Made by a program: the position numbers and the translations under genes
The notes under the pieces: model-generated
Seen by the model: only the letters and a program-made list of their open reading frames with translations
Database searches by the model: none
What the model was told of the DNA's origin: nothing
Source: Planctomycetaceae bacterium
GTDB taxonomy: Bacteria > Planctomycetota > Planctomycetia > Pirellulales > UBA1268
Direction: 5' to 3'
Length of the DNA: 32,087 nucleotides
NCBI GenBank assembly: GCA_046074885.1
Contig: JBJTPA010000014.1
Coordinates: forward strand, 1 to 32,087
Part shown: positions 7,875-27,006 of the stretch, one piece after another
How the letters are laid out: each line of letters opens with the position of its first letter
Numbering within the stretch: the stretch's first letter is position 1

Positions 7875-7919
7875 GTCGCGCCCTCGATCCCTGAGGTGCC
7901 GCTCGGCTCGTGCGGCTCC

Positions 7920-8052
7920 CACATGATCATCGCGCTGACGCGATCACCTCGTCTCGTGGTCCAGTCGCCTCGCGACTGGAATCCGGTCCCTGGATCGCCA
8001 GGGGAAATCCGGTTGCGAGGCAACCGGACCACGGGTTGGCCAGCGACCACAC
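7920..8052 (-). repeat. Repeat family A copy 1 (REPIN-like)
   Basis: Reverse complement closely matches 25376-25510; two inverted GTGG+hairpin units. Confidence 0.9.
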
Positions 8053-8103
8053 CTCGAGTTGGCGGCGGCGGATCACGCCCGAGGATCACGCGTGAGCCCC
8101 CGC

Positions 8104-8314
8104 CGAGCCCCCGTCTCACAGTTGGGGAGGTGAGGGGCCGACGAATGCCCTGAGAGCCGGCCTGTGCTGGCAAGCGCAGCCACGATGGCGAAGCGCAGGC
8201 AGCACGGAGTGAGCGAAGGGCAGGATGCCCGTAGCGAACGTCCGGCGACGGGGCAGCGGCGGTCCCGAACCGGCCACTCGTCCGGCGAGAGGGCGTGGGG
8301 AGCCCCGAGCCGGC
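8104..8314 (+). repeat. Repeat family B copy 1 (structured element with inserted hairpin and an extra 3' half)
   Basis: CAGTTGGGGAGGTGAGGGG..CCCTGAGAGCCGGC..GAGTGAGCGAAGGGCAGGATGCCCGtAGCGAACGTCCGGCGACGGGGC shared with 18640-18733. Confidence 0.85.
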
Positions 8315-18612: not shown

Positions 18613-18755
18613 CCGAGCCCCCGCCTACGCTCCCTGTGGCAGTTGGGGAGGTGAGGGGCTGCCCATAGCCCTGAGAGCCGGCATCGAGTGAGCGAAGGGC
18701 AGGATGCCCGAAGCGAACGTCCGGCGACGGGGCATGGGTAGCCCTGAATCGGCGG
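18613..18755 (+). repeat. Repeat family B copy 2
   Basis: Core shared with 8119-8254; closing stem GGGCTGCCCAT/ATGGGTAGCCC; preceded by a separate long hairpin at about 18565-18610. Confidence 0.85.
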
Positions 18756-21753: not shown

Positions 21754-21774
21754 CCCGCGGGCGCCGCCCGCCGC

Positions 21775-21852
21775 GTGGGCCGGTTGCCTCGCAACCGGTA
21801 GTCGCTGTCGATCCACGGGCCGGATTCCAGTCGCGAGCGACTGGGCCACGAG
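21775..21852 (+). repeat. Repeat family A copy 2
   Basis: GTGGGCCGGTTGCCTCGCAACCGG..TCGATCCA..CCGGATTCCAGTCGCGA-GCGACTGGGCCACGAG, matching copies 1 and 3. Confidence 0.9.
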
Positions 21853-21925
21853 AAGAGCCGATCATGCCTCGAGCGACTGGGCCACGAGAAGAGCCGATCA
21901 TGCCTCGAGCGACTGGGCCACGAGA
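21834..21925 (+). repeat. 36-bp tandem repeat, about 2.5 units
   Basis: Unit CGAGCGACTGGGCCACGAGAAGAGCCGATCATGCCT at 21834 and 21870, partial at 21906. Confidence 0.92.
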
Positions 21926-22988: not shown

Positions 22989-23327
22989 ATGCGGCGCAGG
23001 CACTGGTTTGCGGCGGTCGCCCTCCTCGCGGCAGGTTGCTCGTCGTCCTCGTCCTCTGCGAAGAAGAAGAAGAAATCCGGCAAGGTCTCCGGCATCCAGC
23101 GGATGAAAGCGGGTCCGCAGGGCTTCGGGAACGTGCTCATCCCGGCGTACATCGACGACCTCAAGACGGGCTCGGCCGAGAAGAAGATCACCGCCGCCCA
23201 GGAGCTCGGCAACATGGGCTCGCGCGCGAAGGAGGCGCTGCCGGCGCTCGAGAAGCTCGTCTCCGACAAGAACCCGAAGGTCAGCGGGGCCGCGAAGGCG
23301 GCGGTGGCGGCGATCAAGAAGCGCTGA
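22989..23327 (+). CDS. Lys-rich lipoprotein with a HEAT-like repeat
   Basis: MRRRHWFAAVALLAAGC lipobox; AAQELGNMGSRAKEALPALEKLVSDKNPKV HEAT-like helix pair. Confidence 0.75.
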   Translation: MRRRHWFAAVALLAAGCSSSSSSAKKKKKSGKVSGIQRMKAGPQGFGNVLIPAYIDDLKTGSAEKKITAAQELGNMGSRAKEALPALEKLVSDKNPKVSGAAKAAVAAIKKR

Positions 23328-23428
23328 CTGTCCGTGGACAAAGCCCTCCGTGGCCTTCGTTTACGTGTTCGACCGCGCGACAAGCCGAGGTTTTCGCGGG
23401 TCGAAGGTCGCCGCATCGTGCGGCGGGC
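23327..23428 (+). repeat. Repeat family C, uninterrupted and 3'-truncated copy (MITE-like)
   Basis: Aligns with 25064-25090 joined to 25704-25780; hairpins TCGACC..GGTCGA and CGCCGC..GCGGCG. Confidence 0.8.
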
Positions 23429-23431
23429 GCG

Positions 23432-24280
23432 TCAGCCCCACGCCCTGTGCGCGGGCCGCGGCGCCTCGGCCGCCGGTCGCGACGGATCCTCCGGCGTGAG
23501 TTCCCGCCACGCCCGCTCGACCGTCGTGGCGTCCACGCTCTCGGCGCCGTCGCCCGCCGCGGCCGCCACCGCCAGCCGCGCGAGGCGGCAGACGTCGCGG
23601 GGCACGCCGCCGGTGAACCTCGCCAGCGTGCCGGCCGCGGCGGCCGTGAACACGTCGGCGCCGCGGCCGTGCCGCGCGAGTTCCCAGGCCATGTACGCAG
23701 CCGTCTCGTCCTCCGTCCACGGCGCGAGCTCGATCCGCACGGCCGCCCGCTGCCGCAGGGCGTCGGGCACGCGGTCGAGGCCCGCGGGCGTCGCGGTGGC
23801 GACGACAAGCGACCAGGCGAACCGCGGCTCGGCCGCGGCGGCGATCCGGGCGAGCCCCTCGGCCGCATCGGCCGGCCCGCGGTCGAGGTCGTCGCAGACG
23901 AGCACCGTGGGCCGCTCCATGAGCGCGTTCTCGCGGAGGCGGTTCTCGAGCTTCTGCCAGGGCCTCAGCGGCTCGTCCCGGCCGGCGGCGTCGAGCGGCA
24001 GCCGCTCGAGCAGGAGATCCAGCCACTCCCCCTCCGGCAGTCCGCCGAGCGAGAGCGACACGACCTCGCAGCCGAGGCCGCCGAGCCTGCGTGCGGCCGC
24101 GACGGCCAGGTGACTCTTGCCCGAGCCCGGGTTGCCGATCACGATCCCGCATCGCTGCCGCTCCGCGACGAGCCACTCGAGCCGCGCGAGGGCCTCCTCC
24201 TGCGTCGGTCCGCAATGGAACGCGGCCGGCTCGAGGCGGCCGGCGAACGGGGCGGCGGAGTCGGCGGTGTCGCGTACCAT
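23432..24280 (-). CDS. ExeA-like AAA ATPase
   Basis: QEEALARLEWLV, Walker A GNPGSGKS, Walker B VLVCDD, TGGVPRDVCRL. Confidence 0.8.
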   Translation of the reverse strand: MVRDTADSAAPFAGRLEPAAFHCGPTQEEALARLEWLVAERQRCGIVIGNPGSGKSHLAVAAARRLGGLGCEVVSLSLGGLPEGEWLDLLLERLPLDAAGRDEPLRPWQKLENRLRENALMERPTVLVCDDLDRGPADAAEGLARIAAAAEPRFAWSLVVATATPAGLDRVPDALRQRAAVRIELAPWTEDETAAYMAWELARHGRGADVFTAAAAGTLARFTGGVPRDVCRLARLAVAAAAGDGAESVDATTVERAWRELTPEDPSRPAAEAPRPAHRAWG

Positions 24281-24357: not shown

Positions 24358-25059
24358 ATGAGCGAGCGATTCTTCCTCCGATCCCCGCCCCGCGACGGCC
24401 GCGCCATCCTCGACGGCGACGAGGCCAGGCACCTCGTGCGGGTGCTCCGCGGCCGGGTCGGCGACGAGGTGCGCGTGTTCGACGGAACGGGGAGCGAGTG
24501 GCCCGCGCGGATCGCGGCGCTCGGCCGCGACGAGGTCGCGCTCGAGGTCGGCCCGCCGGTCGTGGCGGCGGAGGCGTCCGCGACGCCGCTGACGCTCGCC
24601 GTGGCGCTGCCCAAGGGGGAGCGGCAGAAGTGGCTCGTGGAGAAGCTCACCGAACTCGGCGTGGACCGGCTCGTGCCGCTCGTCGTCGAGCGGGGGGTGG
24701 CCGAGGCCACGCCGGCGGCGGTCGAGCGGCTCCGCCGCGGCGTGATCGAGGCCTGCAAGCAGTGCGGCCGAAACACGCTCATGGAGATCGGCGAGCCCGC
24801 GACGATCGCCGGGGCCTGCGCGGCGCCGCCCGCGGCGGGTGGCCGCGCGATCCTCTGCGACCCGGCCGGGCCGCCGCTCGAGGACTTCGCGCTCCGGGGC
24901 GCGACCGCGGTCGTCGGCCTCGTCGGCCCGGAGGGGGGCTTCACGGCCGAGGAGATCGCGGCGGCGGTGGCGGCCGGCGCCGTCCGCGCGAGCCTGGGGC
25001 CGCACGTGCTGCGGGTCGAAACGGCGGCGATCGCGCTCGCCGCGCGGCTGGCCCGCTAG
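24358..25059 (+). CDS. rsmE: 16S rRNA m3U1498 methyltransferase
   Basis: EARHLVRVLR, EKLTELGV, EACKQCGR, VGPEGGF, SLGPHVLRVETAA. Confidence 0.95.
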   Translation: MSERFFLRSPPRDGRAILDGDEARHLVRVLRGRVGDEVRVFDGTGSEWPARIAALGRDEVALEVGPPVVAAEASATPLTLAVALPKGERQKWLVEKLTELGVDRLVPLVVERGVAEATPAAVERLRRGVIEACKQCGRNTLMEIGEPATIAGACAAPPAAGGRAILCDPAGPPLEDFALRGATAVVGLVGPEGGFTAEEIAAAVAAGAVRASLGPHVLRVETAAIALAARLAR

Positions 25060-25189
25060 CGTAGCTGCCCGTGGAAGAAGCCCCCCATGGCAATCCTGTT
25101 CGGCACGGGATGTGCGCATCGGAAGCCGGACGATCCAGACGGACTGTGGCGAGGTGCGCCCTGGTCGGCGGAGCGGTACGGTGCCCGCC

Positions 25190-25370
25190 ATGGCCGGACC
25201 GACGAAGCGCGAGATCCGCTATCAGGACGTGCAGGGGCCGAAGTGCCTGCGGACGATGCGTCCGCTGCTTTCGCGACTGCGGAAGGTGGGTGCCGAACGC
25301 GACCGAGCCGGCAATCGGCGGCTGTTCATGGATCAGTACCGCGCACTGATCCTGATGTCGCCGTTCAGCC
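25190..25370 (+). pseudogene. Transposase N-terminal fragment (IS4-like)
   Basis: MAGPTKREIRYQDVQGPKCLRTMRPLLSRLRKVGAERDRAGNRRLFMDQYRALILMSPFS resembles, from recall, the N-terminus of planctomycete IS4 transposases (G.ERDRAGNR.LF.DQY). Similarity ends where repeat A starts; no DDE domain. Confidence 0.72.
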
Positions 25371-25375
25371 TTGAT

Positions 25376-25510
25376 GCGTGGTCGCAGGCCAACCCGTGGT
25401 CCGGTTGCCTCGCAACCGGATGTTCCCTGTCGATCCAAGAACCGGACTCCAGTCGCGAGGCGACTGGGCCACGAGGCGAGGTGATCACGTCAGCGCGAGG
25501 ATCAGGTGTG
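25376..25510 (+). repeat. Repeat family A copy 3
   Basis: Reverse complement of 7920-8052 with scattered substitutions. Confidence 0.9.
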
Positions 25511-25526
25511 ACCCGAAGAACTCAGC

Positions 25527-25625
25527 GAGGGGCCGCCCATCCCCTCGAGACGTCTTCGAGCGAGCGTAGCCCAGGATGACCGCAGCGAGCGTCCGGCGAG
25601 GGGGTGTGGGCAGCCCCGAGCCGGT
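25527..25625 (+). repeat. Repeat family B copy 3 (diverged)
   Basis: GGGGCCGCCCAT-CCCCTCG..GAGCGAGCGTAGCCCAGGATGACCGCAGCGAGCGTCCGG-CGAGGGG..GTGGGCAGCCCC-GAGCCGG. Confidence 0.7.
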
Positions 25626-25815
25626 TGGGCGAGTTGGCCAGGTTCACAAGGGAGCTTCCCCACGAGGAGGCAATCGCCGTGCCGAACAGGATTGCCTCCA
25701 TGGCCTTTTTTCACTTCATCGGCCGGTCGAAAAGCCGAGGTTTTCGACGGTCGATGATCGCCGCTTCCTGCGGCGGCGGACTTTTTCCACAGTCTGCTCG
25801 CGCGGGCGAACCGGC

Positions 25816-27006
25816 TCACGGCTCGGCGACCGGCTCGCCGCCGTCGATGCTGTGCAGGCCGCGGTGGAGCGTCGCGTCGGTCGCGTCCGAGAGGAAGGCG
25901 ACGTGGGCGTCGGCGAAGAGCACGTGCGCCCCGCCGCGATGAAAGCTCCGCGGGCCGAAAAAGCCGGTCCAGTGGACGACGTAGTCGGGGATCTCGCTGT
26001 TGGGGGTCAGGAAGCCGTTCGTGAGGCTGTTGCCCTGCGTCGTGGCGGCCCAGGAGACGCCCCGGGCCCGCATCGTGGGGCTGCTCGCGCCGCGCCAGCC
26101 GTAGGCGGGGCCGGTGCGGGTCCGCCAGGAGGCGAGGAGCGAGTCGATGTCGGCGGTCGAGGGCGTCGGGCTCGCCTTGAGCGAGGCATCGGCCGAGTTG
26201 AAGTCGTTGGAGCCATTGAAGGTGTAGCGGTACGGTGCCGGGGGCGGCGCGGCCGCGGAGAAGTCGCCGTCGCCGCCGACGCTCCGCACGGCCTCGCTGC
26301 CGACGATGCTCTTCGAGGCGCCGTCGGTGACCTGCGCCAGGCGGACGCGGGACCTCTCGTAGGCGATCCCGTCGGTGGGTCGCGCAAAGTTCCAGAGCAT
26401 GCGGCCGCGGCCGTCGGCGGTGCCGCTGCCGATGCTCACCATGAGGTTGGTGCCTCCGTAGGCGAAGCCGTTGGCCGTGGTCACGGTCGGCGCGCGGTCG
26501 CTGGGGCAGAGCAGGAAGGGGATCGGCGTGGCAAAGAGATCTGCGAACCGCGGGTTCGGCACCTGGCTCGCGTAGCCGCCCGTGAAGGCGGCCTGGCCGA
26601 AGTCGAAGCGGTCGGCGAGGGACCGCTCCTCGGCGTAGGGGAGGAGCCTTGCGTGCAGCGACCAGCCGCCGCTGGCGGTGCCGCTCGCGGCGGCGCTGCC
26701 CCGGGCGTCGGTCGGCGGGAACGCCCCGCGGGCCGACTCGTGGTGGAGGAGCGCGAGGCCGAACTGCCGGAGGTTGCTCGCGCACTGGCCGCGGCGGGCG
26801 GCCTCGCGGGCGGCCTGCACGGCGGGCAGCACGAGTCCCACGAGCACGCCGACGATCGCGACGACGACGAGCAACTCGACGAGCGAAAATCCACCGGCGG
26901 CTGCGATGACTCCGACCGGGGTTTTTTCGGTGCCGTCGCGGCGTGGCGCGGACGGCGCCCGCGACTCCTGTGGACAATCGAGCTCGTCACCTGGTGGCGT
27001 GCGCAT
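25816..27006 (-). CDS. DUF1559 domain protein with prepilin-type N-terminal cleavage/methylation motif
   Basis: GFSLVELLVVVAIVGVLVGLVLPAVQAAREAARRGQCASNLRQ; C-terminal SFHRGGAHVLFADAHV. Start uncertain. Confidence 0.93.
   Translation of the reverse strand: MRTPPGDELDCPQESRAPSAPRRDGTEKTPVGVIAAAGGFSLVELLVVVAIVGVLVGLVLPAVQAAREAARRGQCASNLRQFGLALLHHESARGAFPPTDARGSAAASGTASGGWSLHARLLPYAEERSLADRFDFGQAAFTGGYASQVPNPRFADLFATPIPFLLCPSDRAPTVTTANGFAYGGTNLMVSIGSGTADGRGRMLWNFARPTDGIAYERSRVRLAQVTDGASKSIVGSEAVRSVGGDGDFSAAAPPPAPYRYTFNGSNDFNSADASLKASPTPSTADIDSLLASWRTRTGPAYGWRGASSPTMRARGVSWAATTQGNSLTNGFLTPNSEIPDYVVHWTGFFGPRSFHRGGAHVLFADAHVAFLSDATDATLHRGLHSIDGGEPVAEP

Follow-up and report, generated by a model that had tools for sequence, protein, structure and literature searches.

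The 604-base segment at positions 25091-25694, bounded by inverted repeats, is in all likelihood a non-autonomous derivative, formed by internal deletion, of an IS4-family insertion sequence (IS) that is approximately 1.6 kb in length and widespread in the genus. The segment is located in the window, defined here as the whole stretch of DNA analyzed (contig C14, 32,087 nucleotides). This contig belongs to an assembly (G000) of 2.77 Mb and 344 contigs that is 86% complete. The derivative splits one copy of a repeat, designated C, and carries a transposase stub, a copy of repeat A, and a unit of repeat B between its ends. The features of the locus and of the uninterrupted C copy are as follows.

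23318-23440, forward strand: uninterrupted paralogue of repeat C (empty site), with a single 9-mer (23345-23353) at the apex of hairpin 1
24358-25059: rsmE (Pfam PF04452 and PUA_4)
25062-25090, forward strand: left half of repeat C (left arm of hairpin 1), aligning with the C copies at 23318-23440 and on contig C193
25091-25108, forward strand: left terminal inverted repeat (IRL), 18 bp, perfect complement of 25677-25694
25109-25369, forward strand: 5' region of the IS (IS positions ~20-281), including the transposase start and the stub at 25190-25369
25370-25517, forward strand: repeat A, REPIN-like, with two hairpins, 5'-truncated, at the IS deletion junction
25518-25676, forward strand: 3' non-coding region of the IS (from IS position ~1370), made up of the B unit (25518-25640) and a subterminal stretch (25641-25676)
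25677-25694, reverse strand: right terminal inverted repeat (IRR), 18 bp, perfect complement of 25091-25108
25695-25798, forward strand: right half of repeat C, made up of the second duplication copy (25695-25703), the right arm of hairpin 1, and hairpins 2 and 3

The filled C copy and the derivative within it lie between the 3' ends of rsmE and a convergent DUF1559 gene (PF07596), which is the right-hand neighbor. The uninterrupted C copy of the window is likewise found between two convergent genes, a HEAT-repeat ORF and an AAA ATPase. Because the derivative is situated between the 3' ends of convergent genes, an effect on the host is improbable, and the derivative is probably inert debris.

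Ends, empty site, and parent element

The terminal inverted repeats were described in the initial annotation as perfect 18-bp sequences bracketing the transposase stub and the A and B repeats. Their complementarity is exact, and it reaches 19 bp (25090-25108 and 25677-25695) when the adjoining G/C is included. At up to two mismatches, the 19-mer occurs at two places in the window and has matches in none of 100 dinucleotide shuffles. The derivative is flanked by 9-mers at 25082-25090, the last nine nucleotides of the C left half, and at 25695-25703. These are identical at eight of nine positions, which agrees with the near-perfect target duplication noted earlier. For one fixed pair, this agreement has a chance of 4.7e-4; across the window, at least eight of nine positions agree in 21 of 31447 equally spaced 9-mer pairs. 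Beyond the 9-mers, the flanks are complementary over 38-nucleotide arms (79%), and the C left half forms an extended inverted repeat with 25696-25714. This complementarity places the derivative at the tip of a hairpin.

The intact C copy, previously delimited as 23327-23428, had been proposed as the empty allele, and the alignment bears this out. The two flanks were aligned as separate rows with the copy at 23318-23440 and the copies on contigs C193 and C174. Each of these three uninterrupted copies contains the 9-mer once, at the split point, and the halves of the filled copy overlap by exactly nine duplicated columns. The C right half is 79% identical to window positions 23345-23426.

Full-length copies of the parent element are present in related genomes. 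They are 1569-1626 bp in length and end in the same inverted repeat that bounds the window derivative, as required of an IS4-family element. Intact transposase frames of 395-413 amino acids are found in five same-genus genomes, and the copies in G035 and G003 are examples of intact elements. The transposases of two full-length copies score 178.5 and 184.1 bits against the NCBIfam model for IS4-family transposases, NF033592 (cut-off 115), and match Pfam DDE_Tnp_1 at 1e-21, which assigns the parent to the DDE transposases of this family. The stub at 25190-25369 corresponds to residues 13-72 of a 411-amino-acid transposase from a same-genus genome (BLASTP 46/60 identities, 77%, E 5e-28). Pfam returned no family match for the stub or for other N-terminal fragments, and the homology was therefore drawn from the full-length proteins of the relatives. 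A transposase fragment was found in 21 of the 61 relatives searched, and G046 and G047 contain relatives of the element at 41-62% identity. Of the 68 genomes of the genus, 51 contain the 18-mer at no more than one mismatch; none contains the reversed control.

The left part of the derivative is 82-84% identical to IS positions 1-281 of the full-length copies in genomes G035 and G010. The right part, 25518-25676, aligns with the region past the transposase stop in the IS copies of G006, G035, G003, and contig C213. IS positions ~282-1370 (~1.1 kb) are missing, including the whole DDE/catalytic domain, and the derivative is therefore non-autonomous. Both ends are intact and the transposase is deleted, as in other non-autonomous derivatives. 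Relatives contain five comparable derivatives without A, 302-1175 bp in length. One of these, in G022 (contig C127), is 576 bp long, consists of IS positions 1-299 and 1272 to the end, and has a perfect duplication. The earlier reading of the segment as an IS4 deletion derivative inserted in repeat C is thus upheld, with the family assigned through the relatives' transposases.

In the favored reading, the parent IS has the 18-bp inverted repeats, the 411-amino-acid DDE transposase, and one B unit before the right end. Its preferred target is a 9-mer flanked by GC in the apex of an extragenic hairpin repeat, usually B and less frequently a C-like hairpin, and insertion produces a 9-bp duplication. 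The window copy has lost IS positions ~282-1370 and holds a 5'-truncated A at the junction. It would be mobile only with a transposase supplied in trans.

Repeat A and the IS remnants of this genome

Repeat A has 105 distinct loci in G000 (at least 80 bp aligned). Its fold has two stem-loops (9 and 8 bp) with complementary loops (z -2.5), and its opposite-strand self-matches are ~70% identical. It therefore has both the doublet structure and the high copy number of a REPIN. Its position between the inverted repeats of the derivative, given in the initial annotation, is unchanged. With the best 12 candidates per genome scored, A was matched in 11 of 67 other genomes of the genus, mostly as short fragments, and by these matches it is almost confined to G000 and appears lineage-specific. 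All eight IS elements examined in relatives lack A; the repeat is foreign to the IS and a later arrival. The window copy is without the left terminal module found in other copies, which indicates that a deletion followed the arrival of A. Further A copies are present in the window at 7913-8058 and 21756-21864.

No above-threshold Y1 transposase cognate to A was found in G000. A single sub-threshold match, a 222-amino-acid ORF at C250:5-673 (L067), is a candidate RAYT for repeat A. It scores 20.8 bits with Pfam Y1_Tnp (cut-off 23), 24.1 with NCBIfam IS200 (cut-off 55), and 17.4 with the REP-associated tyrosine transposase model (cut-off 80). A-like fragments are also present on this contig.

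Every IS remnant in G000 is associated with A, and the position at which the IS sequence gives way to A differs between them.

Window: IS 281, then A
C52: IS 86, then A
C252 and C285: IS 537, then A
C213: A between IS 792 and IS 1046

The remnant at C213:1-1237 (L001) is the longest in G000 and comprises IS 1-429, IS 689-792, a copy of A, and IS 1046-1477. Just before the contig end, a second element end is located in the apex of the remnant's internal B unit; the IS's own B can thus serve as a target. The initial annotation had advised looking for a full-length IS copy. A tblastn search with two full-length transposases found no intact transposase in the 86%-complete assembly, with fragments on C213, C252, and C14, and the full-length copies lie instead in the same-genus genomes described above.

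Contig C52 bears on the movement of the derivative. It has the left inverted repeat in a B apex, followed by 86 bp of IS sequence and then A and B, and it lacks a right end. C52 and the window have the same junction between A and the IS 3' region, with ~93% identity across A and B, and no other locus in G000 spans this junction. Since C52 shares a unique junction at a different target site, the A-bearing composite or its progenitor appears to have been copied to a second target at least once. No second complete copy of the derivative was found in the 86%-complete assembly, and C52 is the only other locus that shares the junction. Given the missing right end of C52, recombination, and not transposition, could account for the spread of the junction. 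The inverted repeats are perfect in 10 of the 13 ends found in G000, and the internal IS sequence differs by 6-11% between G000 copies. Perfect ends with a diverged interior would fit selection for mobility.

These data also bear on a different course of events, in which a full-length IS inserted in C and then decayed in place. A would have inserted and deletions would have followed there, the element would never have moved as a derivative, and the likeness of C52 would be due to recombination or gene conversion. This sequence of events is possible, though somewhat unlikely. It is favored by the 5' truncation of A, which suggests deletions after A arrived, by the missing right end of C52, and by the ~6-11% divergence of the G000 remnants, which indicates that they are old. 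It does not readily account for C52 having the unique A/IS-3' junction but its left end in a different target, nor for ends that remain perfect against ~10% internal divergence. Two points of the initial annotation are retained in part. A search for other units with A and B between the same ends was advised, and C52 supplies the shared junction at another target, but not a second complete copy. Mobilization of A and B in trans by the intact ends was also suggested; C52 points to past copying of the A-bearing composite, but B, as described below, is not acquired cargo.

Repeats B and C, target choice, and assembly support

Repeat B (25548-25640) has 80 loci in G000 (at least 60 bp aligned), and further copies are present in the window at 8207-8313 and 18653-18747. 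A and B adjoin at ~7.9-8.3 kb of the window. B, the 36-nucleotide subterminal stretch, and the right inverted repeat together occupy 25548-25696, and over this interval the window is collinear with the G006 copy of the IS at its right end (L007, 599-451; 88.6% identity over 149 bp). In five of five full-length copies (L011, L012, L059, L060, and L063), a B unit follows the transposase stop and precedes the right end. Five shorter derivatives in relatives also contain B, as judged from a direct match or from a position that maps to IS 1379-1532, and the 302-bp element of G062 consists of the inverted repeats and a B unit only. Three full-length IS references from three species were compared to G000 by BLAST. 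The ~160-bp block at IS 1361-1525 of each matches 70-117 places, and most of the neighboring IS sequence matches nine or fewer, with more in the bins at the block edges.

The window B was described in the initial annotation as a separately nested element and potential cargo. Based on the collinearity with the IS right end and the presence of B in all five full-length copies, that description is withdrawn: by sequence comparison, B is inherited from the parent IS and was not inserted into the remnant. The B region of the window lacks 28 nucleotides that are present in C52, and lacks more relative to the IS copies of relatives. B may have been captured once by the IS family, or it may have descended from the IS. 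For annotation, B-type repeats beside this inverted repeat are to be treated as part of the IS and not as separate features.

Repeat C has four copies in G000. Each copy starts a few bases past a stop codon and contains three hairpins. The alignment of the four copies shows no terminal repeats and no target duplication belonging to C itself. C is therefore not the MITE-like element that had been proposed; its closer likeness is to REP-like or terminator-like modules. Folding in isolation gives hairpin 1 of the empty copy a stability no greater than that of its shuffles (z 0.23), and gives the B unit a z of -1.2. The reading of the target as a hairpin is consequently drawn from the complementary flanks and from better-paired copies such as that on C193, and not from folding energies. 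No Rfam family was found in A, B, or C.

The gap between rsmE and the DUF1559 gene was compared with that of relatives, as the initial annotation had advised. The closest RsmE among the relatives is 79% identical. In 29 orthologous rsmE loci, a DUF1559 gene lies inside the locus in 12, the IS inverted repeat occurs no more than 700 nucleotides downstream of rsmE in one (G014, in B repeats), and C-like sequence occurs in the gap after rsmE in none. With no gap holding C and a best RsmE identity of 79%, an empty orthologous site could not be demonstrated, and the empty site is represented by the paralogues. In G014, another species of the genus, the locus (L098, contig C245) contains repeats of type B together with a single end of this IS family ~200 nucleotides 3' of rsmE; the family thus inserted independently into the corresponding intergenic region. 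Many relatives have a small convergent gene between rsmE and the DUF1559 gene (L074, L075, L090, L094, L097, L101, and others). This gene is absent in G000, where repeat C and the IS remnant occupy the gap.

Target choice was assessed from 61 distinct ends in G000 and in the loci of relatives, each with no more than one mismatch to the 18-mer and at least 30 nucleotides of flank. The loci were sampled as one per genome plus a few follow-ups, and the genomes are related and the ends not independent; the counts are thus offered as a description of the pattern rather than as a test of significance. Of the 61 ends, 35 adjoin the apical part of a B unit on one side or the other. C-like hairpins account for nine ends (six by pattern and three as partner halves), other sites for 12, and coding false positives for five. 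The latter come from a conserved coding sequence, found in five genomes of the genus, that matches the IS terminal repeat at 17 of 18 positions (L017, L030, L038, L040, and L045). In G000 alone, eight of 12 ends are in B by pattern, two are in C, and two are elsewhere. Insertions at the same position of a C-like hairpin are found in five other genomes (G072, G074, G007, G019, and G062).

Insertion at a fixed position in an extragenic palindromic repeat corresponds to type 1 of Tobes and Pareja. The target of the family, judged from these flanks, is a GC-ended 9-mer at hairpin apices, chiefly those of B and less often those of C-like repeats. The initial annotation had proposed that the IS targets repeat C and had advised checking for other insertions at the same position of C. 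The choice is indeed non-random and recurs at C-like hairpins in other genomes, but the target is wider than C, and most ends are in B.

Both flanks were available for ten elements, and the ends were taken as 18 bp when duplications were scored. A perfect 9-bp duplication flanks three elements (L012, L059, and L061); its two copies agree at eight of nine positions in three others (the window, L062, and L064) and at seven of nine in one (L060). The fixed length of 9 bp is in keeping with an IS4-family element. No 9-bp duplication is present in the other three (L011, L024, and L036). These three, together with the single mismatch in the window duplication, count against the preferred explanation, as does the want of a relative close enough to show an empty orthologous site. 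L011 (G010:C221, 1285-2853) is a full-length IS in which one 9-bp flank is the reverse complement of the other, the arrangement that recombination between two oppositely oriented copies, with inversion, would leave.

The built-in B unit and the target repeat being the same, each IS copy might also act as a landing pad for the next, so that the IS and B spread together. This is tentative and rather unlikely. If true, it would explain the second end in the B apex on C213 and the elements composed of the inverted repeats plus B, such as that of G062. The IS may then seed new B units throughout the genome, or its internal B may function in regulating or capturing targets.

The arrangement could also be explained by A and B being independent repeats that inserted in an IS remnant as cargo, with the IS specifically targeting a MITE, C. 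Both repeats are indeed high-copy and enclosed by the inverted repeats, A is not native to the IS and is absent from the relatives' elements, and the 302-bp G062 element demonstrates that these ends do carry B. This explanation is nonetheless very unlikely, since B and its IS-specific flank are collinear with the right end of the relatives' IS and B is in every full-length copy, C has only four copies with neither inverted repeats nor a duplication of its own, and the majority of insertions are found in B and not in C.

Support for the assembled structure was taken from public contigs over 24700-26100, all from four runs of a single study whose sample may be the source of the assembly. A junction was counted as bridged when a contig extended at least 31 nucleotides across it. 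The right junction is bridged over 25607-25752 and 25604-25753 and the A-to-B join over 25457-25558. At the left junction contigs extend 28 nucleotides inside the element, and at the join of stub and A they cross by 22-29 nucleotides; both fall short of 31. The support is drawn from contigs of one study only, and the unbridged part is not evidence against the structure. Zero-mismatch contigs cover 25093-25370, 25457-25558, and 25607-25752, and no contig among the four runs joins across the element. Position 25372, the second base past the stub/A junction, is T in the window and C in all contigs covering the position in four of four runs; loose contig ends are found at 25373.

The start of contig C233 (1-291, L003) contains the IS right end and B in a perfect palindrome, with 119-nucleotide arms that are 100% complementary and 53 nucleotides apart. 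This 295-bp palindrome was considered as a MITE with two right ends and set aside, because perfect arms at a contig start may be an assembler artefact; it was left out of the evidence.

An assembly chimera of an unrelated inverted repeat with A and B copies, to which 80-105 copies of these repeats in 344 fragmented contigs, the two unbridged joins, the discordant base at 25372, and the artefact-like palindrome of C233 would lend themselves, is very improbable, since a single C copy supplies both flanks as its two halves, which overlap by the target duplication, zero-mismatch contigs cover three stretches of the locus, none joins across the element, and C52 independently shows the same A/IS-3' junction.

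Relation to known elements and significance

Classical members of the IS4 family generate target duplications of 9-12 bp. IS10 and IS50, the insertion sequences of Tn10 and Tn5, have a DDE_Tnp_1 transposase, short inverted repeats, a 9-bp duplication, and partly palindromic 9-bp targets with G/C ends. The present family shares these features, with relatedness at the HMM level only. Unlike the present family, IS10 and IS50 are not known to be restricted to hairpin repeats or to contain a repeat unit of their host. IS110 elements encode a DEDD recombinase guided by RNA. MITEs and other non-autonomous IS derivatives arise by internal deletion of an autonomous IS and retain intact inverted repeats and a duplication without a transposase. 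The window derivative differs from this class in having no second complete copy in the assembly, and hence no family of its own, and in carrying the foreign repeat A at its deletion junction.

REP hairpins are targeted by IS elements of five families, and IS4 elements are already among them in the form of ISRm22 (Tobes and Pareja 2006, PMC1525189). ISRm22 of Sinorhizobium meliloti is described there as having nine copies, all at the axis of a REP palindrome and with GC-ended direct repeats, and its imperfect repeats are attributed to recombination between copies (PMC1525189). It resembles the present family in being an IS4 element in a hairpin apex, and its imperfect repeats parallel L011, L024, and L036. 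The likeness drawn here is one of described insertion behavior, and the ISRm22 direct repeats are 6 bp as opposed to 9 bp here. The account of ISRm22 in that source does not mention a target repeat carried inside its ends, unlike the present family.

IS1397 and ISKpn1 (IS3 family) and ISPpu9, ISPpu10, and IS621 (IS110 family) also insert into REP or BIME palindromes, and the elements studied by experiment are IS1397/ISKpn1 and those of the IS110 type (PMC1525189). As described there, they are like the present family in being site-specific for the loop or axis of a palindrome. They are unlike it in belonging to other transposase families with other chemistry and in making short or no duplications. 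The same paper also comments on Tn5 (PMC1525189). An IS carrying its own target repeat is not among the cases that the consulted portions of PMC1525189 describe; the literature search was not aimed at this feature, and no novelty is claimed for it.

The window element is ordinary mobile-element debris, and it is the apex targeting and the built-in B of the wider family that are of modest interest. As a clear natural example of apex selection in extragenic hairpins by a DDE (IS4-type) transposase, the family offers dozens of insertion sites across the 51 genomes of one genus that contain its ends, and its element carries its own target repeat. It could serve as a model for the recognition of DNA structure or of short palindromic motifs by cut-and-paste transposases, and it could also reveal how an IS and a REP-like repeat shape each other's spread in repeat-rich genomes of the planctomycete type, in which DUF1559 genes are present.
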